64,000 nucleotides of DNA from positions 248,306 to 312,305 of the forward strand of contig CAZXFD010000001.1 in the NCBI GenBank assembly GCA_964640635.1, read 5' to 3'. Source of the stretch: an uncultured Gammaproteobacteria bacterium. GTDB lineage: Bacteria; Patescibacteriota; Patescibacteriia; UBA1558; S5-K13. Shown here one piece after another: positions 5,871 to 60,627 of the stretch. Both the position numbers and the translations under genes were made by a program. Positions within the stretch are counted from its first letter, which is position 1; the number at the start of each line of letters is the position of its first letter. The notes beneath the pieces were generated by a model. That model was given only the letters and a program-made list of their open reading frames with translations. It searched no databases and was not told the DNA's origin.

Positions 5871-6811
5871 TGCCAAAAATTACAATAGCCATTACAACTT
5901 ACAACAGAAGGGAATATCTATTGAGTTCCATCAGGAGTATTTTAAATCAAGCATTCCAGGATTTTAAAATTATTGTTTTTGATAGTGGTAGTGACTATGA
6001 TATAGATAAATTTATCAAAGACTTTGATGATTCTAGAATATATTTAGAAAAGAGCTCAGAAAAAATAGATAGTTTCAATAATTTTAAAAGAGTTTTTAAT
6101 TTTGGATATGAATCAGAATATTTAATGGTTTTTCATGATGATGATGTTATGCATCCAAAACTTTTAGAAACAGAGGTTGGGATAATGGAAAGAAATAAGA
6201 GCTTAATTTGGGTTGGATCTGGATTATCTTTTGTCAGTGATAACTCTAAAATGAATTGTTTCAAGGATAAGTTAAGACTAAAACTTGAAGAAGTATATGA
6301 TACAAAAAATTTAATAAGATTGATTTTAAAAAACTTTCACTTAGCTTATGATAGTGTTGTGTATAGAGTTGTCTATATTGAAGATATAAGTCCGTTTTTT
6401 AAAAAATTTGACAAATGGAATGATAGGCCATTTTTAATTGAATTATCGAAAAAAGGGAAGGTAGCAATTACAAGAGAATCTCTTGTTAATTATAGAATAC
6501 ATAAAAATCAAGATTCACAGGGTAATAATAGTGATAAATTAATTTATTTAATAAATTTATTTAATTTTTATAAAGAAAACTTATCTGTTATTGAAAGCCC
6601 AGAAGATAAAAAGTTATTTTATTCTTGGTCTATTAATAATAGTATATTATCAGCTATCAGTTTTTCAGGAAGTTTTAAGGAATATATTAACTCAATAAAA
6701 GAATTTAAAAAACAAGAACTATTTAAATTTAGTTACGTTAATTTGAAAGGTTTAATTTATTTTATAAAAGCGTTATTTGTCTTAGTCAAAAGAGAATTTA
6801 TAAAAAAATAA
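5870..6811 (+). CDS. Family 2 glycosyltransferase
   Basis: MPKITIAITTYNRREYL ... VFDSGSDYD. The likely true start is the ATG at 5870, overlapping the upstream stop by 1 nt; the ORF track opens at 5834. Confidence 0.7.
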   Translation: MPKITIAITTYNRREYLLSSIRSILNQAFQDFKIIVFDSGSDYDIDKFIKDFDDSRIYLEKSSEKIDSFNNFKRVFNFGYESEYLMVFHDDDVMHPKLLETEVGIMERNKSLIWVGSGLSFVSDNSKMNCFKDKLRLKLEEVYDTKNLIRLILKNFHLAYDSVVYRVVYIEDISPFFKKFDKWNDRPFLIELSKKGKVAITRESLVNYRIHKNQDSQGNNSDKLIYLINLFNFYKENLSVIESPEDKKLFYSWSINNSILSAISFSGSFKEYINSIKEFKKQELFKFSYVNLKGLIYFIKALFVLVKREFIKK

Positions 6812-7749: not shown

Positions 7750-8478
7750 ATGAAAAATATTATTAAAAAAATAATTAAATTTATATTATTTCCATTTATT
7801 CTTTTTGATTATATAAAATTTTATAAGATAAAAGATAATCGTTTTATTTTTAATCTAAAAGATGCCTATCCTTGCATAAAAGATAAAACAATAAAAACAG
7901 GATTTGATAGGCATTATGTATATCATACTGCCTGGGCAGCTAGAAAAGTAAAAGAAATAAATCCTGAGTTTCACATTGATATTTCTTCAAGTTTATATTT
8001 TGCTAGTATTGTGTCTGCATTTATTCCAGTAAAATTTTATGATTATAGACCAGCAAATATAGAACTATCTAATATGGAGAGCTTATGTGGAAATTTAATG
8101 AGTTTGCCATTTGAAAGTAATAGTATTAGATCTCTGTCTTGTATGCATGTAGTAGAGCATATTGGTCTAGGTCGTTATGGGGATAAAATTGATTCATCTG
8201 GTGATTTAAAGGCTATAAATGAGTTAAAGAGAGTTTTGGCAGTGAATGGATCTTTATTGTTTGTAGTACCTATGGGAAAAACTTCTAAAATAGAATTTAA
8301 CGCTCATAGAATTTATATATTCAAACAAATAAAGGAATATTTTTCAGATTTAGAATTAAAAGAATTTTCTTTAATTCCAGAAAAAAATGGTTCCATAATA
8401 TATAATGTAACAGAAAGTGACGTAAATAAAGAAAATTATGCTTGTGGATGTTTTTGGTTTATAAAAAAAATCATATGA
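7750..8478 (+). CDS. SAM-dependent methyltransferase-like protein (DUF268-like)
   Basis: The pattern HYVYHTAWAARKV ... LPFESNSIRSLSCMHVVEHIGLGRYGD ... LAVNGSLLFVVPMG resembles DUF268 / class I MTase motif post-I/II regions. Confidence 0.45.
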   Translation: MKNIIKKIIKFILFPFILFDYIKFYKIKDNRFIFNLKDAYPCIKDKTIKTGFDRHYVYHTAWAARKVKEINPEFHIDISSSLYFASIVSAFIPVKFYDYRPANIELSNMESLCGNLMSLPFESNSIRSLSCMHVVEHIGLGRYGDKIDSSGDLKAINELKRVLAVNGSLLFVVPMGKTSKIEFNAHRIYIFKQIKEYFSDLELKEFSLIPEKNGSIIYNVTESDVNKENYACGCFWFIKKII

Positions 8479-9326
8479 CAACAATAAAACTAAAGGGTGG
8501 TCTTGGTAATCAATTATTTCAATATTCATTCGGAAGATTTTTGTCTATAAAAATAAATGAAGAGGTAAAATTGGATGCAAGTAGTTTAAGTGGTCCAAAA
8601 GACACGCCCAGAACTTATGCTCTAGATGTTTTTAACATTTATTTAAAAATGGCAACAAATATTGAAATTGAAAAAACTAAATATCCTTATGGTTTTTTAT
8701 CTAAGATTTTTAGAATTATCAATCAAAAGGTATTAAAAAGATATAATATTGGATATGATGAATATCTATTGAAATCAAGATCAAAATATTTTGAAGGATA
8801 TTTTCAAAGCTATAAATATTTAGATCCAATCAGAGATGTGTTGTTAACAGAAATTACTCTAAAAGAATCAATAGAAGATAAGTGTAAAGAAGTTTTAGAA
8901 AATATTAAAAAATCAAATTCAGTATCAATTCACATAAGACGTGGAGATTATGTAAATGATGAAAAAACAAAACAAGCTCATAATGTTTGTGATTTAGAAT
9001 ATTATAAAAAAGCTATTAATATTATTAATGACAAAATTGAAAATCCGGTATTTTTTATTTTTTCAGATGATATAAATTGGGTAAGGGAAAATTTGAAAAT
9101 AAATGCTGAAACTCATTATGTTTCAAATGAAGCCATAAAAGATTTTGAAGAACTTATCATTATGAGTAAATGTTATAATAATATTATTGCAAATTCTAGT
9201 TTTAGTTTTTGGGGTGCATGGCTTAATCAAAATGAAAATAAAATTGTTATTGCCCCAGGAAAATGGCACAATAAACTGGACTATGAATACAAAGACTTAT
9301 TACCAGGGTCATGGATAAAAATATAA
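8475..9326 (+). CDS. GT11 alpha-1,2-fucosyltransferase
   Basis: N-terminal IKLKGGLGNQLFQYSFG and HIRRGDY motifs are hallmark GT11 (FutC/WbsJ) signatures. The start is probably M at 8475; the track opens at 8442. Confidence 0.75.
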   Translation: MTTIKLKGGLGNQLFQYSFGRFLSIKINEEVKLDASSLSGPKDTPRTYALDVFNIYLKMATNIEIEKTKYPYGFLSKIFRIINQKVLKRYNIGYDEYLLKSRSKYFEGYFQSYKYLDPIRDVLLTEITLKESIEDKCKEVLENIKKSNSVSIHIRRGDYVNDEKTKQAHNVCDLEYYKKAINIINDKIENPVFFIFSDDINWVRENLKINAETHYVSNEAIKDFEELIIMSKCYNNIIANSSFSFWGAWLNQNENKIVIAPGKWHNKLDYEYKDLLPGSWIKI

Positions 9327-41053: not shown

Positions 41054-41323
41054 GTATTTATATTCCGTCAGGTTAACTCATCTGACGGTTTTTTTATTGA
41101 TTTTTGGGCTATTGTCTGATAAGCTATTCATATAATAAATTGTCAATACAACCCCTATATAACAAATAGGTGGTCGTTTGGGGTTATAATAACAAATTAC
41201 CAATGACAAATTTCAAATCAAGTTTAAATATCAAATGATTAATGACAAATATTTTTTGAAATTTGAAATTTAGGCTTTGAAATTGATTTGATATTGGAAA
41301 TTTGATATTTGAAATTAAACAGT

Positions 41324-43234
41324 ATGTCATTATTCAAACTACATTCATCATTTAAACCTGCTGGTGATCAACCAGAGGCGATATTAAAACTCAAAAAAGG
41401 TCTTGAGAAAGGTTTTGATTTTCAGACACTAATGGGTGTAACAGGAAGTGGTAAGACATTTACGGTAGCAAATATTATATCAGAGCTTGATAAGCCAGTT
41501 CTTGTAATTGCACCAAATAAATCATTAGCAGCTCAGCTTTATCGTGAATACAAAAACTTTTTTCCTGAAAATGCGGTGCATTATTTTGTATCATATTATG
41601 ACTATTATCAGCCAGAAGCATATTTGCCAATCACCGATACTTATATTGATAAAGAAGCGATGATAAATCAGGAAATTGATAAACTTCGTCATGGTGCTAC
41701 AACGGCACTTTCAACAAGACGCGACGTAATAATAGTTGCATCCGTCTCTTGCATATACAATCTTGGAGTTCCTGAGAATTATCAAGAATCATCAATTCAT
41801 CTTGAAACAAATCAGGTTATTACACGAGCCGATTTAATATTTCAACTTATCAAAATTCATTTTGAAAGAACAAATGGGGTTTTAACTCGTGGCCAATTTA
41901 GAATAAGAGGCAATGTTTTTGAAATAAAACCAATGAATGAAGATATTACCTATAGAATAGAGCTAGAAGATCAAATAATACAAGATATTAATATAGTAGA
42001 TAATGTATCTCAAAATATTTTGGAAAACTTAAATGAGATACTGATATTTCCTCCCAAACATTTCATATCATCGGCTCCTCAAACAATGGAGGCTATAAAA
42101 AATATAAAAAGTGAATTAAAAGAAAGACTAGCTTATTTTAAAAGAAATAAATTATATCTTGAAGCAGAGAGAATTGAAAGACGCACAAAATATGACATTG
42201 AAATGATGAAATCAATTGGCTATTGTCATGGGATAGAAAATTACTCTCGTCATTTATCTGGAAAGCTTGCAGGAGAAGCACCCGACTCTCTTTTGGCATA
42301 TTTTCCCAAAGTTGATGGAAAACCAGATTTTCTTACAATAATAGACGAATCACATATTGCAGTTCCACAAATTGGTGGAATGTATGCAGGTGATAAAAGT
42401 AGAAAACAGAATCTTGTTCAATATGGTTGGAGACTTCCATCAGCGCTTGATAATAGACCCCTTAGATTTACTGAATTTAGAGCTCGTGTTGGACAGGTTA
42501 TTTTCACAACAGCAACGCCAGGAAAGTTTGAAGTAGAGAATTCAAAGGTCGTTATAGAGCAAATTATACGTCCTACAGGGCTTATTGATCCAGAAGTTGA
42601 AATAAGACCCGTCTTTGATAAAAAGCGCAATAGAAGCCAAATAAATGACATAATGGATGAGATAGAAAGACTTGCAAAAAAGAATGAAAGAACTATTGTT
42701 AATACTCTTACAAAAAAACAAGCAGAGGACTTACATGCATATTTGACAGAAAGAAAGTTTAGATCAAATTATGTTCACTCTGATGTAAAAACATTTGAAA
42801 GAAATGAGATATTAAAAAACTTTCGTCTTGGAAAATTTGATGTGTTAATTGGAGTAAATTTACTTCGTGAAGGGCTTGATTTACCAGAAGTAACTCTTGT
42901 CGCAATTTTAGACGCAGATCGTGAAGGATTTCTAAGATCAGAGACATCACTAATGCAGACAATGGGTCGTGCAGCTAGAAATGTAAAAGGAAAAATAATT
43001 CTTTATGCTGATGAAACAACTGACTCAATGAAAAAGGCAATAAAAGAAGTAGAGCGTCGTAGAAAAAAACAAATTGAATATAATACGAAGTACAATATAA
43101 CGCCAAAGACTATTAAAAAAGATATTGAAGATTTCTTGGATATTTCAACTGAAGATGATAGAAATGTCAAATTACAAATGTCAAATATCAAATCAATATC
43201 AAAGATTAAAAAATCAAAAGTCAAAAGAATTTGA
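41324..43234 (+). CDS. uvrB: Excinuclease ABC subunit B
   Basis: [20 protein letters not shown] ... GVTGSGKT ... helicase motifs; C-terminal UVR-domain-like tail. The true start is the ATG at 41324; the track opens at a TTG at 41309. Confidence 0.95.
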
Positions 43235-43301: not shown

Positions 43302-45800
43302 ATGAACGAACAAATTATAATAAAGGGTGCTCGGATGCATAATCTAAAAAATATAGATTTAGAAATTCCGCACAATAAATTAACAGTAATAACTGGACTC
43401 TCTGGTAGCGGGAAGTCATCTCTTGCTTTTGATACAATTTTTGCTGAAGGGCAACGTCAATATGTTGAGTCATTGTCTCCTTATATGAGACAATTTTTGG
43501 GTCAGAAAAAACCCGCTGATGTAGATGAAATAATAGGACTTGCTCCATCAATTTCTATTGATCAAAAAGCTTTATCACACAATCCCAGATCTACAGTTGG
43601 AACACTTACTGATATTTATGATTACTTGAGAATTCTTTATGCAAGAGTTGGTGAAGTGTTTTGTCCATTATGTGGAACAAAAATAGAAAAATTATCTCTT
43701 GAGGAAATGATAGATATAATTATTTCTAAAAAAGTAGGTGATAAAGATTTCGCAGTAATACTTTCTCCAATAGTAATGGATAGAAAAGGAGAATATTATC
43801 AAATGCTTTATGATTATCTAAAACTTGGATACGGTGAAGCAAGAATCGACGGTGAGATGAAGTCACTTCGAGAAAAAGTAATTATTTCTCCTACTAAAAA
43901 ACATAGTATTGATCTAGTTGTAGATAAAGTATTGCTAAGCGATGAAACACGACTTTTTGAAGCTGTAGAAAATTCGCTTGCATATAGTAAAGGACTTGTA
44001 ATAGTTCAGATAAATGATGAAGAATTTTTGTTATCCTCAAACTGGACTTGTCCAAATGATAATTTCTCATTTCCAGAAGTAGAGCCAAGATTATTTTCAT
44101 TTAATTCTCCACACGGTGCTTGCACACAATGTTTTGGACTTGGAAAAGTAGGATTTAAAGGAAAAATATGTGATAAGTGTCATGGATTAAGACTAAGAGA
44201 TGAAGCATTATCTGTGCGAATAAACAAAAAAAATATTGCAGAAGTCTGTAATCTTACAATAGATAAAGCAGTAGACTTTTTCAAATCTTTTCAGAATAAA
44301 ATGACAAAGCGTCAAACTGAGATTGCAGACCTTGTAGTAAAGCAAATTATAAATAGATATGAATTTTTGCTAAAAGTAGGGCTTCATTATTTGAGCCTTG
44401 ATAGAGAAGCAGAAACACTATCCGGTGGAGAAGCACAGCGTATAAGATTGTCATCGCAAATTGGATCTCATTTGTCTCGTACTCTTTATGTGCTTGATGA
44501 GCCTACAATAGGACTTCATGAAAGAGATACTGACAAATTGATTGAAACCTTAAAAGCGCTACGCGACAAAAACAACACTGTAATAATAGTTGAACACGAC
44601 GAGAGAACAATACTTGAATCAGACTATTTTGTAGATCTTGGACCTCTTGCAGGAGTTCACGGTGGAGAAGTAGTAGCAATTGGAGATACTCTTGATCTAA
44701 TAGACTCTAAGAATAAGAAGTTCGACAAATCTTTGACCCTTCAATATTTAAGAGGTACAAGAAAAATAGAATTACCTGCACATAGACGAGATAAAAATAA
44801 AGGCTCGCTAAAAATAGTAGGAGCAAAAGCAAATAATCTAAAGGGAATAAATGTTGAAATTCCACTTGGTCGTATGATTGGTATTACTGGAGTTTCAGGA
44901 AGTGGTAAGTCATCACTTATCTATGATGTGCTTTATAAAAATATCATTAAGATACAACATAGACCTACAAAACCAAATTTAGAAAATGTGAAAGAAATAA
45001 AAGGGCTTGAGTATGTTGATAAGCTAGTAATTATAAATCAATCACCAATAGGACGAACTCCGAGATCAAATCCAGCAACATACACTGGAATATTTTCACC
45101 TATCAGAGAATTCTTTGCAGAACTTCCTGAGTCCCGTGAAAGAGCATACACATTATCTCGTTTTTCATTCAATCGCGCAGGTGGAAGATGTGAAGCGTGC
45201 TCAGGTGCAGGGTTTAATCTTATAGAAATGCATTTCTTGCCACCAGTACTTGTAGAGTGTGAAGTATGTCATGGAAGAAGATTCAATCGTGAAACACTTC
45301 AAGTAAAATACAAAAATCATAGCATTGCTGAGGTGTTAGACCTGACAATTGATGAGGCATACAAACTTTTTGATGGAAATTATTATATTACTGATAAACT
45401 AAAAGTTCTAATAGAAGTGGGACTAGGGTATTTGAAATTAGGACAATCTGCGACAACTCTTTCAGGTGGAGAAGCTCAGCGTATAAAACTCGCAAAAGAG
45501 CTTACAAATACACTTGGAAAACGCACATTATACTTGTTGGATGAGCCAACAACAGGACTTCATTATCATGATATTGAATTATTGCTTCACGTGCTAAACA
45601 AACTTGTAGAACGTGGGAACACAATTCTGATTATTGAGCATAATTTGCATGTTATAAAATCAATGGATTATATAATAGATCTTGGTCCTGATGGTGGAGA
45701 AAATGGAGGAAGGGTGATTGCTTATGGAACACCAGAGGAAATAGCAAATAATAGTAAAAGTGTTACGGGAGAATATTTGAAGCCGTACTTAAAGAAATAG
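43302..45800 (+). CDS. uvrA: Excinuclease ABC subunit A
   Basis: Two ABC modules ([10 protein letters not shown]; LSGGEAQR x2) and zinc modules CxxC; 832 aa. Confidence 0.95.
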
Positions 45801-45950
45801 TTATTGGCATAAGCACTAAATACGAAATATGAAGCACGAAACAATATTGAAATCAGAAATTTGAAATTATAAACCGTTTGAATTTTATGATTTAAGTATT
45901 TGAGATTTGTTTCGAATTTCGATATTATAATTTAGTGCTTCTTTCTAAAG
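45801..45950. repeat. MITE-like 150-bp insertion with terminal inverted repeats, flanked by duplicated uvrA 3' ends
   Basis: Terminal inverted repeats AAGCACTAAAT at 45811-45821 and ATTTAGTGCTT at 45930-45940. The uvrA 3' end GGrGAATATTTGAAGCCGTAyTTAAAGA at 45768-45795 is duplicated at 45951-45978, and both copies end in a stop codon. Confidence 0.45.
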
Positions 45951-46071
45951 GGGGAATATTTGAAGCCGTATTTAAAGAGGTAAAAACTATATTGCTTTTT
46001 AAAACAAAAGTTGTAAAATAAATACAAAGGCCGTAAAAGGCTTTTTTATTTAACTAAAAAATATCCAATGT

Positions 46072-46698
46072 ATGTTAGTTTTCATAGATGATTCTGGAGA
46101 CCCAGGATTTAAAATAGAAAAAGGCTCCACACCATATTTTGTTATTTCCATGGTTATATTTGACGATAATCTAGAAGCAGAAAAAACGGCTATTGCTATT
46201 AAAGAATTAAAAAGAAAAATACATTTTAGTGAAAATACTGAATTTAGATTTTTTAAAACGAGTTCAATTAATAAGAAGAAATTTTTAAATGTTATTAATG
46301 ATTTTAAATTTCGTGTTAGGTGTTTGGTCGTTGATAAATCTCTTATAAAAAGTCGGGAACTAAAACAAAATAAAAATTCTTTTTATTCATATTTCATTAA
46401 AGAGGTTTTGAGAAATAATAATGATACAATCTTAAACGCAAAAATAAAAATTGACGGCAGTGGCGACAGGATATTTAGACAAAATTTTCTTACATATTTA
46501 AGAAAAGAATTAAATTTAAGAGATAAAATCATAATGAAGCAATGTAAGATGATTGATTCAAAAAAAGATGTATTAATACAAATGGCTGACATGGTAGCTG
46601 GTAGTATAAATAGATTTTATAATAATGATAAAAAAGATAATATTATTTATAAAAATATAATAAAAAAGCACATAGAGGATGAGTGGAAATTCAAGTAA
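46072..46698 (+). CDS. DUF3800 family protein
   Basis: N-terminal MLVFIDDSGDPGF (DUF3800 hallmark) and QMADMVAG C-terminal motif. Confidence 0.6.
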   Translation: MLVFIDDSGDPGFKIEKGSTPYFVISMVIFDDNLEAEKTAIAIKELKRKIHFSENTEFRFFKTSSINKKKFLNVINDFKFRVRCLVVDKSLIKSRELKQNKNSFYSYFIKEVLRNNNDTILNAKIKIDGSGDRIFRQNFLTYLRKELNLRDKIIMKQCKMIDSKKDVLIQMADMVAGSINRFYNNDKKDNIIYKNIIKKHIEDEWKFK

Positions 46699-46705
46699 TA
46701 AAAAA

Positions 46706-46726
46706 ACCTCCTAAAAAGGAGTTTTT
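46706..46726 (+). terminator. Rho-independent terminator (CTCCT-aaaa-AGGAG + T5)
   Basis: Read directly from sequence. Confidence 0.5.
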
Positions 46727-46953
46727 CCAACCACGTCTCTATACTAGTTGTCCTAGTCACGCCACCATCCGGTGACAGTTCAAGATACAGGTTTATGTAA
46801 TTACATTATATCTTACGTAAGATAGCTTGTCAATAACCCTTTAAATAAAGGGTATTTTATATATAAATTATTCGTATAATTAGTACCATTGGTATATTGG
46901 CATTGTATGTTCATTCGTATAATTGCTTTTTAGCTTAAAAAATGGGAAAATAG

Positions 46954-47748
46954 ATGTATGATTTTTATCTTTTTTATATGCAATTACTTTTTAATACAGA
47001 ATTAGCAAATAACTATAACAGTGCGTCTCAGAAAATAAGAATTTTAACAGAGAATTGGGTTGATAATCATATTTTTTGTCCAAATTGTGGAAATTTGAGT
47101 ATTGATAAATATCCAAATAATCAGCCAGTAGCTGATTTTTATTGTTTTAATTGCAATGAAGATTATGAATTAAAGAGTAAAAAAGATACTATTGGAAACA
47201 AAATTGTAGATGGTGCCTATAAGACAATGATTGAAAGATTGAAAAGTAATAATAATCCAAATTTTTTCTTTTTAAATTATGGTTTAACAAATTTTGAAGT
47301 AATAAATTTTTTGGTTATTCCAAAACATTTTTTTATTCCAAGTATTATTGAAAAAAGAAAACCACTTTCAAATACAGCGCAACGCGCTGGTTGGGTTGGG
47401 TGTAATGTTATTCTTAAAAATATTCCTGAGACTGGAAAGATATTTTTTGTTCGCGATAAACAAATTGAGAAAAAAGAAAATGTTTTATCTAATTGGAAGA
47501 AAACATTATTTTTAAGAGAAGAAAATGAAATTCCTACAAAAGGTTGGTTACTAGATATAATGCGATGTCTTGATAAAATAAACAAAAAAGAATTTACACT
47601 TGATGATGTATATATCTTTGAAAATGAATTAAGTAAATTACACTCAGATAATAAACATATAAAAGATAAAATTAGACAACAATTACAAATTCTAAGAGAT
47701 AAAAATTATTTAGATTTTGTATCTCGTGGTTATTATAAAATGAATTAA
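46954..47748 (+). CDS. PD-(D/E)XK restriction endonuclease-like protein, DpnI/Dam-replacing-family-like, with an embedded Cys4 zinc ribbon
   Basis: The motifs CPNCG...VADFYCFNCNEDYELKSKK give D-x11-E-x-K spacing inside a Cys4 ribbon. The C-terminal KIRQQLQILRDK resembles the DpnI wH domain. Similarity is recalled from memory, not searched. Confidence 0.45.
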   Translation: MYDFYLFYMQLLFNTELANNYNSASQKIRILTENWVDNHIFCPNCGNLSIDKYPNNQPVADFYCFNCNEDYELKSKKDTIGNKIVDGAYKTMIERLKSNNNPNFFFLNYGLTNFEVINFLVIPKHFFIPSIIEKRKPLSNTAQRAGWVGCNVILKNIPETGKIFFVRDKQIEKKENVLSNWKKTLFLREENEIPTKGWLLDIMRCLDKINKKEFTLDDVYIFENELSKLHSDNKHIKDKIRQQLQILRDKNYLDFVSRGYYKMN

Positions 47749-47773
47749 ATGATAAACTTAAAAATTTTAAATA

Positions 47774-48190
47774 ATGTTAGATAATAATTTTCAATACAAA
47801 TCTGATTATAAATATTATTTAGATAAATTAGCAAATGGAGACGAAATTTTATTTAAAAAGAAATTTTTAAAACTTTTTGATTTTAGAGAGCCGATAGTAA
47901 AAAGAAAAGAGTTCAATAAAATAAGAAATAAAGTATTTAAAGAATTGGTTAGTAAGTACGGCAAAAGATGTCAATTAAATTTATCTCCAAATTGTGGAAA
48001 AGTTGAATTATTTGATGTTGATCATTTTATTCCACTTTCAACTAATGTCTTAAACAAAGAATTAAGACATTTACAAGCAGAAAAAGGACACAAAGTAAAA
48101 AGTCAAAGCTTTGGTTCAAATGATATTTCAAATTTAAGAATTGCTTGTAAAAAATGTAATAGCTTTAAAAAGCATAGAATCTTTTTGTAA
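47774..48190 (+). CDS. HNH endonuclease
   Basis: CxxC ... DVDHFIPLS ... N ... CKKCNSFKKHR (HNH with zinc-ligating Cys pairs). Confidence 0.6.
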   Translation: MLDNNFQYKSDYKYYLDKLANGDEILFKKKFLKLFDFREPIVKRKEFNKIRNKVFKELVSKYGKRCQLNLSPNCGKVELFDVDHFIPLSTNVLNKELRHLQAEKGHKVKSQSFGSNDISNLRIACKKCNSFKKHRIFL

Positions 48191-48366: not shown

Positions 48367-48933
48367 TTATTTTTTATTGTTTCTATCGCAATCCCAATTT
48401 CTGGGGTTGTTTTTTATATATTCACGAATATTGTATAAATCCAGTTCTGTATGAATAATGTGTTCGTAATATGATTTTTGCCAACGAAAATATATTGCGT
48501 GATTTACCAAATTGATTTTTTTGGATGAAAACGTTTTAAATCCCCGAATCATTTCAAATAATGAATATTTTTTGTATCCCGTAGAGGCGGGTTTGTAACT
48601 CGCCTCTGAGATGGGTTGTAAACCCATCTCTACGTGGTTCGTGTGGCGAATACGTTTTATTTGTATTATCCCGTGGAAATGATTCGGCATTATTACATAC
48701 GAATCCAAAATACAATTTTTATAATGATTTGGTAAATCGCGCCAGCAATGTTTCACAATATACCCATATTTATTCAATGTCATTTTTCCATCTATGATTT
48801 CACCAAAACAATTAACCATATTTTTGGTACAAATAGTAACAAAATAAAAACCAGGATCAGAATAATCCCAGTATTTAAGACGAGTAGATTCAATTCTATA
48901 TTTATTTTTAAACAAAATAAGGTCCTTGTTCAT
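48367..48933 (-). CDS. tnpA: IS200/IS605-family HUH Y1 transposase (RAYT-like)
   Basis: HUH motif IMPNHFHGIIQI; catalytic-Tyr region SYYEHIIH...Y; helix FEMIRGFKTFSSKKIN; carries an atypical ~20-aa in-frame insertion encoded by two hairpins. Confidence 0.6.
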   Translation of the reverse strand: MNKDLILFKNKYRIESTRLKYWDYSDPGFYFVTICTKNMVNCFGEIIDGKMTLNKYGYIVKHCWRDLPNHYKNCILDSYVIMPNHFHGIIQIKRIRHTNHVEMGLQPISEASYKPASTGYKKYSLFEMIRGFKTFSSKKINLVNHAIYFRWQKSYYEHIIHTELDLYNIREYIKNNPRNWDCDRNNKK

Positions 48934-49018: not shown

Positions 49019-50179
49019 ATGACTAAACTAAAAGACAAAATAAAAAATATACCCCAGAAACCCGGCATATACTTTTTTCTAGACAAGAATAAAACCATTC
49101 TTTATGTTGGTCGTGCAATATCACTTAAAAATAGAATTTCTCAATATTTTCAAAAAAACATTGATATAAGAATTGCTGAAATGATTTCTCTTGCCCATGA
49201 TATTAAATTCATTGAAACAGAAAATTTATTAGAAGCAATAATACTAGAGGCAAAAAATATCAAGAAATATTGGCCAAAGTATAATATCAAAGACAAAGAC
49301 AATAGATCTTTTATTTACATCGCAATTGATAAAAATAGTGATTATCCAAAAGTTAAATTAATAAGACAGCGAGAACTAGATAAATTTCCTATAAATAAAT
49401 TTGCAGTCTTTGGTCCTTATCAATCTTTATATTTAATTCAAAATGCACTAAAAATTATTAGACGCATATTTCCATATAGTACTTGCGTACCAAATAATGG
49501 CAAACCTTGTTTTGATTATCAAATAGGATTATGCCCAGGAACTTGTATTGGTGAAATTAGTAAAAAGAATTATAAAAAGAATATTTCTAATATTATTTTG
49601 TTTTTGTCAGGTGAAAAAACTCGTCTCTTAAAAAAATTAATGAAAGAAGATCCAGAAAAAGCAAAATTTTTAAAACATATTCAAGATGTATCGTTATTAA
49701 CAAATGAAAATGATATAAATTTAAAAATTAACAGAATTGAAGGTTATGATATTAGTCATTTTGCTGGAAAAGAATCGTATGGCTCAATGGTTGTTTTTGA
49801 AAATGGTCAGGCAAATAAAAATGAATATAGATTATTTAAGATAAAAACTGCTCCTGCAAGTGACGATGAAAGAGCACTCGAGGAAGTTATTTCAAGAAGA
49901 TTGAATCATCACGAGTGGCAAAGCCCCGATTTTATTATGATAGATGGTGGCAAACCACAAGTTGATTATATAAGCAAACTATTTAAGGGTATAAATATAA
50001 ACATTCCTATCGTTGGAATTTCAAAATATGATAATGATAGATTGGTTTATGGAACAGGTATGAGTAAAAGTATCAAGGAATTATGTGAAAATATTAAATC
50101 AACACTACTAAAGACTCGAGAAGAAGCACATAGATTTGCAAATAAAGGAAGAAAAAATAGTTTTGGAAAGAGGAAATAA
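49019..50179 (+). CDS. uvrC: Excinuclease ABC subunit C, compact form (GIY-YIG + Cys motif + endonuclease core; no HhH tail)
   Basis: GIY-YIG PGIYFFLDKNKTILYVGRAISLKNRISQYF; Cys motif CVPNNGKPCFDYQIGLCPGTC; RIEGYDISHFAG ... IMIDGGKPQ ... EEAHRFA; ends 386 aa. Confidence 0.8.
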   Translation: MTKLKDKIKNIPQKPGIYFFLDKNKTILYVGRAISLKNRISQYFQKNIDIRIAEMISLAHDIKFIETENLLEAIILEAKNIKKYWPKYNIKDKDNRSFIYIAIDKNSDYPKVKLIRQRELDKFPINKFAVFGPYQSLYLIQNALKIIRRIFPYSTCVPNNGKPCFDYQIGLCPGTCIGEISKKNYKKNISNIILFLSGEKTRLLKKLMKEDPEKAKFLKHIQDVSLLTNENDINLKINRIEGYDISHFAGKESYGSMVVFENGQANKNEYRLFKIKTAPASDDERALEEVISRRLNHHEWQSPDFIMIDGGKPQVDYISKLFKGININIPIVGISKYDNDRLVYGTGMSKSIKELCENIKSTLLKTREEAHRFANKGRKNSFGKRK

Positions 50180-50210
50180 AAAATGCTCTGGATTGCTCCA
50201 GAGCTATTGT

Positions 50211-50900
50211 TTATCTTATTCTTATAATCATAAATTCCCCATGAAGCATAAATATACCTCTTGCCATTGGAATTTTCTCATCATTGGGCCAATTTACATA
50301 AACTCTATCATCTTTTTCTAAAGAATTTGTGTAGACGAAAGAATTTTTTGGCAACTTGATTTGAAGCACTTTTGATAAACAGCATAGTATGTATTTAATA
50401 ACGGATGCTTCCGGTATTTTTTCATCATTTTCCAACATTGATATTTTATCAAAACAAGATTCTCCAATTACTTCTGGAGTTTTTCTGACTAACATCCAAC
50501 ATGATTCCGATATGTGTGAAATATCCTCAAATCTATAGTCATAGAACATCTCCCTATCAGAATCTTTCAAATAAGGCATGAGTATATGAGTCTCCTTTAA
50601 GCTCTCAAGATCCTTAATTTGAGGAATCTTAGTAAGTCTTTCCATGTCGTCTAAATGTGGATCCAAATTAAGGGCTATAATCACATCCGATATTGATATG
50701 AAATTTTCGCCCATTATCTTTTTCGCATCTAGCTCATCCGACGTTAATTCATGGCCCTTGGTTTGGGCCATATTAACTATTTTTTGAGCCAATTCTTTTG
50801 ACTCGACGACCCTTGATGCGAGCTCTTCATCAAATCCCAGTCTAGTTAAGGTTTTCACTACTTTAGCCCAAGTATGGAATGGTATTGGTTTGCCATTCAT
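50211..50900 (-). CDS. Hypothetical protein; locally higher-GC cargo of an insertion flanked by duplicated uvrC 3' ends
   Basis: 229 aa ORF. It lies between two diverged ~70-nt copies of the uvrC terminus, at 50109-50179 and 51000-51071. Confidence 0.4.
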   Translation of the reverse strand: MNGKPIPFHTWAKVVKTLTRLGFDEELASRVVESKELAQKIVNMAQTKGHELTSDELDAKKIMGENFISISDVIIALNLDPHLDDMERLTKIPQIKDLESLKETHILMPYLKDSDREMFYDYRFEDISHISESCWMLVRKTPEVIGESCFDKISMLENDEKIPEASVIKYILCCLSKVLQIKLPKNSFVYTNSLEKDDRVYVNWPNDEKIPMARGIFMLHGEFMIIRIR

Positions 50901-51193
50901 GGCGGACCTCCTGCTTATTTAATTTTATAGTTACATATTAACAGTTTATTTTAAAAATACAAGATTAAATTACAATGTGAAAACATTAAACCAATACCAC
51001 TAAAAACTCATAAAGAAGCACATAAATTTGCAAATAGAGGAAGAAAAAATAATTTTAGAAAGAGAAAATAAAATCGCCTCTCAGGTCATCCTGAGTTTAT
51101 CTCAGGATCTCAATGAGAATGCAATTACAATGAGATCCCGAAACAAGTTCGGGATGACAGGTGAAGAGAGAATTGTAGACGATTTTTGTCTAT

Positions 51194-51493
51194 TTAATCA
51201 AAGTCTTTATAAAATAAATCAATCCAATTTGGATTATTTTTTTCAATCACATTTATTTTCCAATCCCTGTGCCAATTCTTTAATTGCTTTTCTCGCTCAA
51301 TAGCATTTCTTGGGTTATTAAAACCCTCGTAGTAAACTAATTTATCAATATTATATTTTGATGTAAAACCTTTATTTATTTTATCTTTGTGTTCAATTAT
51401 CCTTCTGTATAAATCGTTTGTAATACCAATATATAAAACACCACATTTTCTGTTTGTCAAAATATAAACAAAATATGTTTTATCGCTTTTCAT
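51194..51493 (-). CDS. Stand-alone GIY-YIG nuclease family protein
   Basis: YFVYILTNRKCGVLYIGITNDLYRRIIEH ... ; 99 aa. Confidence 0.75.
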   Translation of the reverse strand: MKSDKTYFVYILTNRKCGVLYIGITNDLYRRIIEHKDKINKGFTSKYNIDKLVYYEGFNNPRNAIEREKQLKNWHRDWKINVIEKNNPNWIDLFYKDFD

Positions 51494-51545
51494 ATTAATA
51501 TCTTATTATTTTCCAATAGAATGTCAATAATGTTATAATAATGTT

Positions 51546-52136
51546 ATGATTTTAGATCAGATTTTATCATTTTTACTTTTATATAAATATTTTGCGTTAT
51601 TTCTAATAACTTTTTTTGCATCTCTGACAAATCTTACGCCAGCAAGTCCATCACTTATTGCTTCTGGCTCTTTTGTCGCCGCGGGATACTTAAATTATTG
51701 GCAAGTAATTGTATTTGGATTTTTAGGAACAGTATTAGGAGATATTACAGCTTATTTTCTTTCTTATTATTATAGTAAAGAAATATTGATGAAAATTGGA
51801 TTTAAGAAAATTTTAAACTCCAAAAGTTTTTCAAAGGTAGAAATATTATTTGAAAAAAATTCCGGGAAAACAATATTTCTAAGTCGCTTTTTTCTTACTA
51901 GTTTTGGTCCTATTGTAAATTTGATAGCTGGATTATCAAAAATAAGTTTCAAAAAATTTATTGTCTGTGACTTATTAGGGGAGTTAATATATGTGTTTTT
52001 ACTTACAGGAATAGGATATTTATTTGCAGATAATTGGAAATATGTATCAAGCTTATTTTCTTATGCAAGTAATATTTTAATAATATTATTCATTTTTATA
52101 GTAATTATATATTTTCATAGAAAAAAGCTATTTTAA
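51546..52136 (+). CDS. DedA/TVP38-family membrane protein
   Basis: Multi-TM 196 aa protein; LGTVLGDITAYFL region typical of DedA. Confidence 0.55.
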   Translation: MILDQILSFLLLYKYFALFLITFFASLTNLTPASPSLIASGSFVAAGYLNYWQVIVFGFLGTVLGDITAYFLSYYYSKEILMKIGFKKILNSKSFSKVEILFEKNSGKTIFLSRFFLTSFGPIVNLIAGLSKISFKKFIVCDLLGELIYVFLLTGIGYLFADNWKYVSSLFSYASNILIILFIFIVIIYFHRKKLF

Positions 52137-57609: not shown

Positions 57610-59193
57610 ATGAAAAAGATTTTTATAATCTTCGCTTTACTACTTGTTGCATTTTCATTCATGTATGCCTATGATTGGCCTACTATGAATAAACCCCACC
57701 CAACTCATGGTCAAAATGTTTTAAGAACGTTTGGGGACAATATCAGGTTTGGACACAATCGCGGAGACTTACCAGACTCTGTAGCAATCAGAATGGTGAG
57801 AAAATGGATAGGCAATGACGTCGAGTTTTTCACCGTCCCCTATGGTTATAAGTTCATGGGATGGATGTATTATGGAAAGATTAACGCAAGTACTCCCCGG
57901 GTGATAGATGGCCCAATATACATGAAAATTACCGCCGTTTATGATAGTTTGGGAAACATTGTCAGGCAAAATCCAAGAGGAGTTCCTATATATTGCAAGA
58001 TAGTAAAAGACACCTTGAGATATGAAGAAAGTCCAAATGTAATAAACGAGTGGATTAGAAGAAACAATCTCTCGGGATATGTTAATAACTCAATGATGGA
58101 TCTGGAATATACATTTATGTATTTCGGACCTGGCTATGCCAATTCTCCGCAATGCTCAAATGTATGTCTAGGCATAAAACTTGTGCCTAGAAGAGAAATC
58201 CGAATAATCAGAGAACCTTATCCAGTTCCAGTTCCAGTTTATCGAGACTCTGTAAGAACAATCAGAATTGAAGTTCCATCAGAGTCTTTTTCTCCAGAAA
58301 TAGAAGTTGATGGCTGGATGAACTCGTCGTTTACCCAGCTTTACAGACCTCTCGCAGACTCTGTTTATACCCCTGGCATGATTTCATACAATATTACCCG
58401 AAACTACAACGCTAAACAGTCATTCGACTTACTTGGTGGGGCTAGGGTAAGAATGTCCATTTCGGACAATTACAATTGTTATGGAGAAATCGGCGGTGGC
58501 GCAAAAGACGGAGTGGGAGAAATATATGCAAAAATTGGATTAAGACACCTATGGGAAACATCCCTCGGAACTTTTTCAATCGGAGCGGATATCAATCCTC
58601 AATGGTGGCAATTTGTCTATTGGACCTATAGAAAATTCAATATCATAAGCCCAACTCAATATTCTATTGAGTCTAGACAACATAAACCCTGGGTTGAAGG
58701 AATCAATCTTGGAGCTGAGTTGAAGCTTGCTGGAGAAAACAGCTATGCCCTCGTTCATGGATCTTTCGATCCTAGAGCCTGGAATAATGCGTTTGGCCTA
58801 GAGGCTAAAACAGAAGGAAGCTTCTATGGATCTTTATTGGGCAATTATCAATATTTCAGCCCAGATAAGTTCGTAGATGCAGATTCCTTGGTTTTTAAGC
58901 CGAAGAGAAATAATTATTTGGCTGAGGCTAAGCTTGGATTTCGTGTTAAAAAATCTGACTCCGGCAACACCTTCGTCTTTATCGATGGTAGAATGGATCA
59001 TCAAGAGATCCAACAACCTCGAGTCGATGGACATCCGTATTTATACAAGTATATACGGACCGATATAGGCGCTGGCGTACAATTTCCATTTTACTGGGAC
59101 AACGCTCAAGTCATACTGACCTATGTCGACATCAAAGATGGCGACTGGAAAAATTACGGCTGGTGCTTGCGAATCGTATGGAACATCTTTTAA
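57610..59193 (+). CDS. Secreted hypothetical protein
   Basis: Signal peptide MKKIFIIFALLLVAFSFMYA; SD GGAGGA. Confidence 0.4.
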   Translation: MKKIFIIFALLLVAFSFMYAYDWPTMNKPHPTHGQNVLRTFGDNIRFGHNRGDLPDSVAIRMVRKWIGNDVEFFTVPYGYKFMGWMYYGKINASTPRVIDGPIYMKITAVYDSLGNIVRQNPRGVPIYCKIVKDTLRYEESPNVINEWIRRNNLSGYVNNSMMDLEYTFMYFGPGYANSPQCSNVCLGIKLVPRREIRIIREPYPVPVPVYRDSVRTIRIEVPSESFSPEIEVDGWMNSSFTQLYRPLADSVYTPGMISYNITRNYNAKQSFDLLGGARVRMSISDNYNCYGEIGGGAKDGVGEIYAKIGLRHLWETSLGTFSIGADINPQWWQFVYWTYRKFNIISPTQYSIESRQHKPWVEGINLGAELKLAGENSYALVHGSFDPRAWNNAFGLEAKTEGSFYGSLLGNYQYFSPDKFVDADSLVFKPKRNNYLAEAKLGFRVKKSDSGNTFVFIDGRMDHQEIQQPRVDGHPYLYKYIRTDIGAGVQFPFYWDNAQVILTYVDIKDGDWKNYGWCLRIVWNIF

Positions 59194-59210
59194 ACCAAAG
59201 GAGGAAAAAG

Positions 59211-60197
59211 ATGAAAATATTCATGTTTATGGTTTGCCTAATCTTGGTCACCATGACTCTTATGTCGTGTGCGCCAAAAACTACAGAGGCAATAGTTCAA
59301 GAACAGCTGGGACAAATGGAGTTCATACTCAAGAACTCTAGCAATAAAAGCATTCCTACAGCCCCAAATAATGCAGAGACTTACATCTCCGGCACAATTA
59401 ATGGAGGTACTTCTGCACAGTATGATTCTTTACGGTTTGTTGGTTATTGGGGAAGCCCAATTACTGTCAATATCAATGTCAGCACTGGCAGAAAAAATAT
59501 CAAGTGCTGGTATAAACAAGATGAGAGGTATGTGCGGTTTTATCCATCAATGACAATGAAAGTGGTAACTCCTGAACATACAACATATATAGATTTACTA
59601 CATGTTGTTGTAAGAGACACACTCTTATCTGATCAAACCGGATATTCGTCACATATGTATTATGATATGGCAACTGAATTTATATTATCATTCAATCAGT
59701 ATGGATTAACGGTTAATCCACTTGAGAATTCAGCGCCATTTGTCAATACAAAAATCGAATATTCCGGCATTGCAGACCCGGCTATTCCCTGGCCAGATGG
59801 AGTCAATGCCTCTACATACAACGAAATTGGTTCTAGTGTTGTAGCTGGAGAACAACTATACATTATTTCAACCTACAACGATCTTCGTGGAGATCGAAAA
59901 ATTCCAATGAGCTATAATAGCACAACTGGAAAATGGGAATTTGAATTTCCCTATCTTCCAACTGCTGGCATGAATTTCAGAATTGAGAAGGCAAGTGGTC
60001 AGCCCTTATTTATGGGCGTAAGACTTATAACCCCACTCGGTTCTGTATCTTGTTACAACATTCATTACTTCCCAGATTCATCTGGGCAAAACACATGGAT
60101 GTTATTTGAAGCATCCTTGGTAAATGGAATTCCTCATATTCCATATCCAGGGGTAAATCAATTACTAAACATTCTTCAGTTGATCATAGGAGAATAA
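59211..60197 (+). CDS. Putative lipoprotein, hypothetical
   Basis: SD AAGGAGG; signal peptide with lipobox LMSC. Confidence 0.4.
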   Translation: MKIFMFMVCLILVTMTLMSCAPKTTEAIVQEQLGQMEFILKNSSNKSIPTAPNNAETYISGTINGGTSAQYDSLRFVGYWGSPITVNINVSTGRKNIKCWYKQDERYVRFYPSMTMKVVTPEHTTYIDLLHVVVRDTLLSDQTGYSSHMYYDMATEFILSFNQYGLTVNPLENSAPFVNTKIEYSGIADPAIPWPDGVNASTYNEIGSSVVAGEQLYIISTYNDLRGDRKIPMSYNSTTGKWEFEFPYLPTAGMNFRIEKASGQPLFMGVRLITPLGSVSCYNIHYFPDSSGQNTWMLFEASLVNGIPHIPYPGVNQLLNILQLIIGE

Positions 60198-60198
60198 A

Positions 60199-60627
60199 AT
60201 GAAGAAAATCATAATACTCGTCGCCTTACTTGTCGCAACAATAATGTTAAACGCTCAGATGCCTTCTGCGATGCAGATTACAACTTCCACGGACGGAACG
60301 TACAATATCGAGTACACAGTCCCATACGGACCTCGTTTCTCGGTCAATCCAGTCGTGGGTAGACAAAAATCCATTGGCAACGTAGCGCTCGATCAAATTC
60401 CAAATATTGAGAGCATTACACCGGTGTTAGTCATTTTTAAAACCAATGATGCAATTCCGGGAACTATAGACATGGAATCAAGAAAGATCACGTTTTCCGG
60501 AATCCAAGCGTCTGCCATCACTGGCAACGTTTGGAACATTGCATTTTTTGGAACCGATAATAATTATTGGCTCCACGGGTTGCAATATCCAGGGAAAGAC
60601 AAAAAACACCGAGGGTTTAAATTCTAA
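60199..60627 (+). CDS. Small secreted hypothetical protein
   Basis: Signal peptide; SD GGAGAA. Confidence 0.4.
   Translation: MKKIIILVALLVATIMLNAQMPSAMQITTSTDGTYNIEYTVPYGPRFSVNPVVGRQKSIGNVALDQIPNIESITPVLVIFKTNDAIPGTIDMESRKITFSGIQASAITGNVWNIAFFGTDNNYWLHGLQYPGKDKKHRGFKF

Follow-up and report, generated by a model that had tools for sequence, protein, structure and literature searches.

The 3' end of uvrC is duplicated in the stretch of bacterial DNA analysed here (64 kb of an assembled contig, hereafter the window), and the two copies enclose a single foreign-looking gene. At 29% GC, the window is AT-rich. The uvrC protein encoded there shares 91-95% identity with its counterparts at loci L002-L005 from uncultured Patescibacteria, including Candidatus Komeilibacteria S5_K13 (L003), and the host genome is that of a Komeilibacteria-like member of the candidate phyla radiation (CPR). 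We found that an insertion separates the two copies, that the downstream copy is a relic of the uvrC end, and that an architecture of this kind appears in other CPR genomes as well. The repeat is read here, with somewhat better than even confidence, as the scar of the entry of a one-gene cassette (module 1) by attachment-site (att)-like or Campbell-type recombination at the uvrC end. A second module, with a gene for a GIY-YIG nuclease-domain protein, lies directly beyond. The features of the locus, in window coordinates, are:

49019-50179, plus strand: uvrC, 386 aa, intact (Pfam PF01541, GIY-YIG, and PF08459, UvrC RNase H; no helix-hairpin-helix tail)
50083-50181, plus strand: repeat copy 1, the last 97 nt of uvrC (functional) and 2 nt
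50185-50204, both strands: bidirectional terminator-like hairpin from a terminator scan, GCTCTGGA-TTGC-TCCAGAGC, between the convergent uvrC and 229-aa open reading frame (ORF)
50211-50900, minus strand: 229-aa cargo gene, a divergent member of a CPR family of variable (target) proteins of diversity-generating retroelements (DGRs)
50901-50974, minus strand: AT-rich upstream region of the cargo gene, the right part of the insert, with a strong ribosome-binding site (AGGAGG) and promoter-like hexamers
50975-51073, plus strand: repeat copy 2, the displaced uvrC 3' end, a relic that is non-coding
51075-51190, no strand: palindromic double-hairpin element, with inverted hairpins at 51088-51108 and 51135-51155, each TGTCATCC-stem-loop-stem-GGATC
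51080-51095: short terminator-like hairpin, overlapping the first TGTCATCC hairpin
51194-51493, minus strand: GIY-YIG nuclease-domain protein, 99 aa, stand-alone, YhbQ/COG2827-like (PF01541, E = 3.9e-18)
51546-52136, plus strand: DedA/VTT-domain membrane protein gene (PF09335), the conserved right flank of the site, directly after uvrC in L003

The direct repeat (50083-50181 and 50975-51073) is 99 nt long, with 86 of 99 positions identical (87%) and a spacing of 892 nt. It is the sole long non-tRNA repeat across the window. An earlier reading of this DNA from its letters alone (the sequence-only reading) had described a duplication of 71 nt at ~87% identity; the identity was borne out, and the repeat runs 28 nt further on the 5' side. 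Its right edge lies 2 nt past the uvrC TAA. Local alignment against shuffled sequences revealed no significant similarity beyond either edge, and any homology reaching into the two terminator hairpins or leftward of the repeat was not significant. The 13 mismatches are spread evenly, with a longest identical run of 14 nt. Logan contigs from SRR10083292 and SRR10083310 were 100% identical to the window at the locus, the first covering the whole region and the second stopping at 50263, inside the 229-aa gene. These identical, independent assemblies rule out an assembly artefact.

Copy 1 is part of an intact and native uvrC. It agrees with L005 at 89 of 97 positions (91.8%), as does the rest of the gene (about 90%), and L005 is the closest relative along uvrC right up to the stop codon. 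Sliding-window identity against six relatives showed no mosaic breakpoint along the gene. A mosaic or foreign origin of copy 1 was considered and gave no signal, the affinity being constant along uvrC; the replacement of the 3' end that the sequence-only reading had proposed was not supported, on the same grounds.

Copy 2, by contrast with the functional copy 1, does not constitute a gene. In the uvrC frame it closes with TAA, as had been reported, but the open frame described with it begins only at 50955 (38 codons upstream) and holds no ATG, GTG or TTG, so that it is untranslatable. It agrees with L005 at 86 of 97 positions. Changes unique to copy 2 number ~8, mostly G to A, and those unique to copy 1 ~3. 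Codon positions 1 and 2 account for ten of the 13 differences between the copies, and 9 of 31 residues of copy 2 are changed, three of them within the REEAHRFAN motif, which is kept in every relative inspected. Together, the missing start codon, the substitutions in this motif, the changes at codon positions 1 and 2 and the excess of unique changes show that copy 2 is a decaying relic, and most of the 13% difference between the copies is its decay. Site patterns compared three ways (copy 1, copy 2 and L005) were ambiguous, with 3, 1 and 2 sites in favour of the respective groupings; the data are compatible both with a copy 1 brought by the cassette and with two copies that arose in place.

At four-fold degenerate sites, uvrC of the window and uvrC of L005, which has no insert, differ by 26%. 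The copies differ by 13%, and the insertion event is therefore local, later than the split between the window and L005, and fairly old. UvrC in the window and at uvrC loci L002-L170 is merely ~380-415 aa long and lacks the C-terminal helix-hairpin-helix domain of canonical UvrC. A metagenome scan for closer relatives returned no uvrC above 67% identity.

The site is empty in L003, the nearest of the relatives in which this is so. There, uvrC stops at 9170 and, 4 nt on, the VTT region starts at 9174 and aligns to the window from 51498 onward (VTT promoter and gene). Because L003 runs from uvrC directly into the VTT gene without a counterpart, window positions 50180-51497 are acquired DNA, in two separate modules. 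The DNA between the copies, including the 229-aa gene, is missing in all five close relatives that reach past uvrC, and L002, L003, L005, L006 and L016 have no second uvrC tail. The alignment with relatives that the sequence-only reading had suggested as a check thus supported the insertion it had proposed. It gave no sign of the two outcomes named there as refuting it, a tandem uvrC pseudogene (the repeat is just 99 nt long, with sharp edges) and a conserved, syntenic 229-aa gene.

Other genes occupy the same junction elsewhere: a RAYT-like (repetitive extragenic palindrome (REP)-associated tyrosine transposase-like) gene in L005, a 128-129-aa ORF in L002 and L006, and unrelated ORFs in L016. 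Since close relatives carry different genes there, the uvrC-to-DedA/VTT junction is an insertion hotspot. Module 1 (~50182-50974, the one-gene cassette) and module 2 (~51075-51497, the GIY-YIG gene with its double hairpin) were acquired independently.

Module 1 is ~0.8 kb long and self-contained, with its own predicted promoter (minus-strand matches near 50948-50981 in a promoter scan), ribosome-binding site and terminator. The minus-strand 229-aa ORF of the earlier reading is real. Its GC content is 0.343, compared with a window gene mean of 0.291 (standard deviation 0.041), and its GC content at third codon positions (GC3) is 0.322, compared with 0.211 (standard deviation 0.061), i.e. ~1.3 and ~1.8 standard deviations above the means. 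The GC content had been called visibly higher than that of the surroundings; it is raised (fifth of 57 genes), though not extreme. Pfam, PHROG and NCBIfam gave no match to the protein. Its lone close match in 5.8 billion clusters was itself, the phage collection held no match to the gene, and the window has no other copy of the region. An exhaustive HMMER search found 83 distant homologues of about 250 aa, 26-37% identical (best E = 1.3e-11, phmmer); among 1.84 billion cluster representatives, no homologue exceeded 37% identity. The raised GC and GC3, the homologues at no more than 37% identity, and membership of a DGR family without a reverse transcriptase or Avd gene in the window make the gene look foreign, in agreement with the sequence-only reading. 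An AlphaFold2 model of the 229-aa protein was poor (predicted local distance difference test, pLDDT, 58; C-terminal half <50), a model of a typical family member (pLDDT 67) gave nothing useful for structure, and a profile search against PDB sequences was empty.

No terminal inverted repeats and no transposase were found on the uvrC cassette. The sole ORF between the repeats is the 229-aa gene, and neither Pfam, PHROG nor NCBIfam recognised a recombinase in it.

A search for the 229-aa protein elsewhere, also advised in the sequence-only reading, led from the 83 homologues to a CPR family of DGR targets. A profile built from the homologues retrieved 208 proteins, and all those with a taxon label were from Patescibacteria. 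Of four genomic contexts, three showed bAvd and RVT_1 genes ~520 nt after the family gene. At those three loci the last 120 nt of the gene recur ~480 nt downstream with 86-87% identity, and the mismatches between this variable repeat (VR) and template repeat (TR) lie at adenines of the downstream copy in 15 of 16, 13 of 16 and 17 of 17 cases. The family loci are:

5001-5774 in L082, L084 and L086: DGR target genes of the family (proteins P0002-P0203)
near 6116-6250 in the same loci: template repeats

On account of the adenine-specific VR/TR pairs, the hallmark that defines a DGR, and the adjoining bAvd and reverse transcriptase genes, this CPR-only family of ~255-aa proteins, which has no Pfam model, can be assigned to the DGR variable (target) proteins, as the sequence comparisons show. 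The L082 locus has a prophage-like context, with terminase and methylase genes.

The 229-aa protein itself is a very divergent member of the family, with which it shares 27-36% identity. Against the L084 target, residues 22-204 aligned with 28.6% identity (tblastn, E = 5.5e-19), and its C-terminal ~25 residues do not align to the family variable region. Homology to DGR targets of CPR bacteria, which have been surveyed before (PMC8144416, PMC11661182), extended from E = 1e-11 to 1e-19. Unlike those targets, the 229-aa gene lacks an accompanying template repeat, Avd or reverse transcriptase across the 64 kb: no second copy of its 3' end was found in the window, and a tblastn search of the window with two DGR reverse transcriptases and two Avd proteins gave only one spurious match (E = 0.48). 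The gene is an orphan, and presumably frozen, copy of a DGR target. The uvrC repeat was also considered as a VR/TR pair and rejected, as reverse transcriptase and Avd genes are lacking and the mismatches are not adenine-specific; they fall at adenines of copy 2 in 7 of 13 cases, all A/G transitions, and at adenines of copy 1 in 2 of 13.

Beyond copy 2, the hairpins and the 99-aa GIY-YIG ORF were present as claimed. The double-hairpin element has a fold z-score of -4.3 and a self-complementary stretch of 74 nt. The TGTCATCC hairpin motif occurs twice (0.1 expected), with no further copies in the window. The GIY-YIG gene is missing at the site in L003 and L005. A matching double hairpin lies in L174 (3801-3945), beside a 76%-identical GIY-YIG gene between aroE and comEC; one of its hairpins is 28/31 identical to that of the window and has a compensatory C:G to T:A stem change. 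Variants flank GIY-YIG genes as inverted repeats in L067 (10540-10940), L176 (1590-2100) and L180 (3410-3860). GIY-YIG homologues number >1,400, with about 60-76% identity among the 120 listed, and sit at stable positions beside unrelated genes where checked.

The 99-aa protein is all catalytic domain. In this it resembles the very widespread YhbQ/COG2827-type proteins, which consist of the GIY-YIG domain alone (~100 aa); unlike them, the gene in the window is tied to a conserved double hairpin. It also lacks the DNA-binding domains that define homing endonucleases of the I-TevI type, and reached 21.9 bits with the group I intron endonuclease family TIGR01453 (cut-off 56.05). No similarity was detected to the N-terminal GIY-YIG domain of uvrC. 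Nothing ties the GIY-YIG gene to the uvrC duplication, and module 2 is independent of it. The gene and the TGTCATCC hairpin may form a mobile or regulatory unit. We know of no earlier description of a hairpin element tied to stand-alone GIY-YIG genes, and a literature search found nothing on COG2827-associated repeats. A 29-nt inverted match, 86% complementary, links uvrC (50021-50049, SKYDNDRLVY) with the GIY-YIG gene (51333-51361, SKYNIDKLVY); it is probably a coincidence (rough chance estimate ~0.03).

A second terminus duplication is present in the window, at the end of uvrA, where the sequence-only reading had pointed to a parallel:

45767-45983, plus strand: the uvrA case, with the uvrA 3' end at 45767-45800, the insert at 45801-45949 and the relic copy at 45950-45983

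The repeat is 34 nt long with 5 mismatches, the copies are 183 nt apart, and their stop codons are at the same position. The site is uninterrupted in L003, and both copies are collinear with the L003 native flanks. The insert (149 nt) is palindromic and resembles a miniature inverted-repeat transposable element (MITE), with 11-bp terminal inverted repeats (AAGCACTAAAT). L004 holds the MITE-like element (~130-150 nt) at two further places (1151-1278 and 7870-7981); one coincides exactly with the uvrC start codon, and a new start codon comes after the element. Compared with insertion sequences, transposons and MITEs, the uvrC cassette differs in having no terminal inverted repeats and a diverged repeat of 99 nt; the uvrA insert has the terminal inverted repeats, yet its flanking duplication of 34 nt is not short.

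To search for further cases, 146 non-redundant CPR loci (1.69 Mb) were surveyed for genes whose last 60 nt recur within 3 kb downstream. This was the case for 7 of 1,297 genes: three DGR VR/TR pairs, the two window cases, uvrC of L054 and murC of L058. None of 2,598 internal control segments recurred likewise. In L054, a NYN-domain gene lies between the copies of the uvrC end, and in insert-free relatives the end of uvrC and the gene after it are collinear with copy 2. The copies share an identical 26-nt core, and the homologous arms around it have diverged far more: in the left arm of copy 2, 9 of 18 positions do not match the resident gene. The insert at L058 murC is a 437-aa gene, and the near-identical core shows a single mismatch over 44 nt; the next 20 nt contain 8, and the arm ends in a stop codon at the same position. 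A mirror image was found at a 5' end in L003, where a 408-aa ORF between uvrB and uvrA is flanked by a 52-nt duplication (759-810 and 2191-2242) that takes in the uvrA start and the sequence upstream of it.

The recurrent inserts contained no recognisable recombinase (Pfam for the window 229-aa ORF; NCBIfam for the cargo ORFs of L054, L058 and L003), and by eye the five cassettes share no junction motifs. We found nothing in the literature on terminal duplications in Patescibacteria. The comparisons show that the terminus-duplicating insertion architecture recurs in CPR genomes, and the expectation of a recurring duplication that keeps the reading frame held for uvrA and for three unrelated loci, L054 uvrC, L058 murC and the uvrA 5' end of L003. 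Two genomes with just ~74% identity have the NYN-domain gene directly after uvrC (L054 9216-9994; L095 1585-2340), and in both it carries a conserved GC-rich structured tail (TAGCC..GGCTAG, CGCGGG..CCCGT..CGCGGG). The uvrC end is duplicated in L054 and not in L095.

In the reading that we consider the most likely, incoming and probably circular DNA would have carried a segment homologous to the gene end, and a single crossover with the resident uvrC end would have integrated it. Catalysis could have come from host homologous recombination or from a recombinase supplied in trans. Copy 1 would have stayed joined to uvrC, preserving the gene and its stop codon, and copy 2 would have been displaced beyond the cargo, where, untranslated, it would decay. 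Recombination between the copies could in principle excise the cassette again. Two observations favour this account. The homology ends 0-2 nt from the stop codon in three of the four 3' cases, which argues for a gene-end segment on the incoming DNA rather than a random staggered cut. The L054 and L058 cores are flanked by much more diverged arms, which argues for a crossover rather than a simple duplication.

Several points weigh against it. At uvrC the mismatches are even, there is no identical core and copy 1 looks native, and a duplication at insertion fits this case equally well; the age of the event could have erased an identical core. In L054, the 26-nt core overlaps the likely -35 element of the downstream gene, and selection on that element could have sufficed to keep it without a crossover. 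We found no donor arrangement of uvrC with the 229-aa gene, no circular form and no recombinase (64 kb of the genome). The enrichment in the survey partly rests on the two window cases, for which the window was chosen; outside it, two 3' events and one 5' event were found in ~1.6 Mb, or ~3 per 1,300 genes. The order in which modules 1 and 2 would have arrived is read solely from copy 2 abutting module 2.

A long target-site duplication is a serious rival, although we judge it unlikely. Here, the cassette, and likewise the MITE-like element at uvrA, would have entered by a cut-and-fill mechanism; nicks 30-100 nt apart would have given two initially identical copies, of which copy 2 drifted, and only insertions with a duplication across a gene terminus would have survived, since the gene then remains whole. 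The even mismatches at uvrC, the native-looking copy 1 and the neutral-type decay of copy 2 are all as expected from this model. So is the collinearity of both uvrA copies with the native flanks of L003, and a selection filter predicts events at gene termini and never in internal controls. However, the uvrC insert has neither terminal inverted repeats nor a transposase. Three of four right edges lie 0-2 nt from the stop codon, with a rough random probability of ~2e-4 (for ~50-nt intergenic space), and the L058 mismatches (1 in 44, then 8 in 20) are not a drift pattern. To our knowledge, no prokaryotic transposition system gives variable duplications of 34-99 nt, which also counts against this model.

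One-sided homologous recombination during natural transformation, i.e. homology-facilitated illegitimate recombination, seems doubtful. A linear fragment from a related strain, one in which the 229-aa gene naturally came after uvrC, would have been anchored on the left in uvrC and joined illegitimately on the right, 99 nt upstream of the uvrC stop codon of the recipient. This would account for the end of homology at the stop codon, the sharp left edge of copy 2 and the lack of a recombinase. CPR bacteria encode competence genes, e.g. the comEC gene in L174, and the arrangement in L095, with the NYN-domain gene directly after uvrC and no duplication, could represent a donor type for L054. On the other side, no known genome places the 229-aa gene after uvrC, and uvrC gives no mosaic signal. 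The left arm of copy 2 in L054, at 9 of 18 positions different from the resident gene, is not predicted unless long decay followed. In Acinetobacter and Streptococcus, recombination of this type usually deletes rather than duplicates recipient DNA, a further point against the model.

GIY-YIG homing is highly improbable. The neighbouring protein would have cut the uvrC end, or targeted the region coding for the GIY-YIG domain, and the cargo would have been inserted with repair of the 3' end; the sequence-only reading had raised both possibilities. The proximity of the gene invites this idea: with its structured flanks it lies 120 nt from copy 2 and is missing in L003 and L005, its hairpin element abuts the copy 2 stop codon, and the protein has weak PHROG matches to homing endonucleases. 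However, a protein of 99 aa without a DNA-binding domain, below the intron-endonuclease cut-off and with no similarity to the uvrC domain, is a poor candidate. The insertion sits at the opposite end of uvrC from the GIY-YIG domain. The L054, L058, L003 and uvrA cases have no GIY-YIG neighbour, and the homologues remain at stable positions by unrelated genes. We know of no flanking duplications created by homing through double-strand-break repair, which likewise speaks against it.

Least probable of all is a trivial or unrelated repeat (a two-strain assembly chimera, a tandem uvrC pseudogene remnant or a DGR VR/TR pair on uvrC): the sequence does come from a metagenome-assembled genome and the cargo from a DGR target family, but the independent Logan assemblies are identical, the repeat is short and sharp-edged, the L003 site is cleanly empty, reverse transcriptase and Avd genes are missing from the window, and just 7 of 13 mismatches are at copy 2 adenines, all of them A/G transitions, in a uvrC end that is conserved among relatives.

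Going beyond att-like or Campbell-type entry at uvrC, CPR genomes may host unrecognised mobile cassettes that have no recombinase and target the termini of housekeeping genes. We propose this broader reading only tentatively and consider it rather improbable. Such a cassette would consist of a single gene or a MITE-sized insert together with the last or first 30-100 nt of a conserved gene such as uvrC, uvrA or murC. Insertion at the terminus would rebuild the ORF and its stop codon and leave a relic beyond the cargo. Recombination between the copies could cut the cassette out as a circle, and in relatives this circle could enter the same terminus. The GIY-YIG gene and its TGTCATCC hairpin pair may be a second, independent mobile unit at the hotspot.

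The uvrC locus can be compared with several known systems. Conserved genes can host, at their 3' end, genomic islands and cis-mobilizable elements (CIMEs); examples are the streptococcal ICEs (integrative and conjugative elements) as well as CIMEs at fda (PMC5704250) and the Dehalococcoides islands at ssrA (PMC3146451). As in these, the cargo lies between direct repeats derived from the 3' end of the target gene (attL/attR geometry), the target gene is intact, the downstream repeat is a non-functional remnant, and relatives have an empty site. An island or an integrative and mobilizable element (IME) requires a tyrosine or serine recombinase, and a CIME by definition lacks one. The uvrC cassette has the repeats, the intact ORF and the empty site that an island or IME would show; in lacking its own integrase it resembles a CIME. 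It differs from 3'-end islands and CIMEs in its cargo (one gene of 0.8 kb, or a 149-nt MITE-like insert in the uvrA case), in having no known cognate element that bears an integrase, in repeats that are 87% identical with no identical run beyond 14 nt, in its CPR hosts, and in the mirror event at a 5' end in L003.

Campbell-type single crossover and homology-facilitated illegitimate recombination are known from naturally transformable bacteria (PMC3410848, PMC8116780). The uvrC locus is like a Campbell-type integration in that entry would proceed through short homology to a resident gene, with no need for an element-encoded enzyme, and in that a single crossover duplicates the homologous segment on either side of the insert. 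Unlike the insertions seen here, these processes are laboratory-defined and are not known to give rise repeatedly to one-gene terminus insertions in CPR bacteria, and the illegitimate form usually deletes recipient DNA. A DGR repeat pair, a classical transposon insertion and a homing-endonuclease event were all considered, and none fits the uvrC locus.

Further features of the surrounding window are:

41309-43234: uvrB
43302-45800, plus strand: uvrA
within 46072-46793: DUF3800 gene and DUF3800-IX RNA (Rfam RF02968, 52.9 bits), between uvrA and uvrC
46954-48190: gene for a DpnI-type restriction enzyme, followed by an HNH gene
48367-48933, minus strand: RAYT-like gene

The DUF3800/DpnI/HNH stretch between uvrA and uvrC is probably another variable island. 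L003 has the DUF3800 gene and part of the stretch (window 45950-46951), and different genes over most of the DpnI/HNH positions. The RAYT-like gene lies upstream of uvrC in the window, L002, L073 and L130, and downstream of it in L005. Its ORF holds two tandem perfect hairpins of 10-11 bp (~48583-48630, fold z-score -6.9), the counterpart of this segment in L002 and L005 is variable and GC-rich, and both Logan contigs break at 48709, inside the gene. A three-gene block at 57610-60627 has a GC content of 0.38-0.42 and GC3 up to 0.46, compared with a window mean of 0.29, and may be another horizontally acquired segment. An Rfam scan of the window reported just two tRNAs and the DUF3800-IX RNA, and nothing for the hairpins or the uvrA insert.

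Insertion scars of this type are known; here the scar encloses a one-gene cassette without its own recombinase. CPR bacteria have tiny, tightly packed genomes with few recognisable mobile elements, and their gene gain is poorly understood. The analysis also assigned a Pfam-less, CPR-only protein family to the DGR targets and flagged a hairpin element of stand-alone GIY-YIG genes. The uvrC locus is a concrete, repeatable footprint of gene gain that spares essential genes and involves no element-encoded recombinase. If a dedicated mechanism lies behind it, it would be a simple route of gene flow in a very large, largely uncultured group of bacteria, and would provide a practical marker for recently acquired genes in metagenome-assembled genomes.

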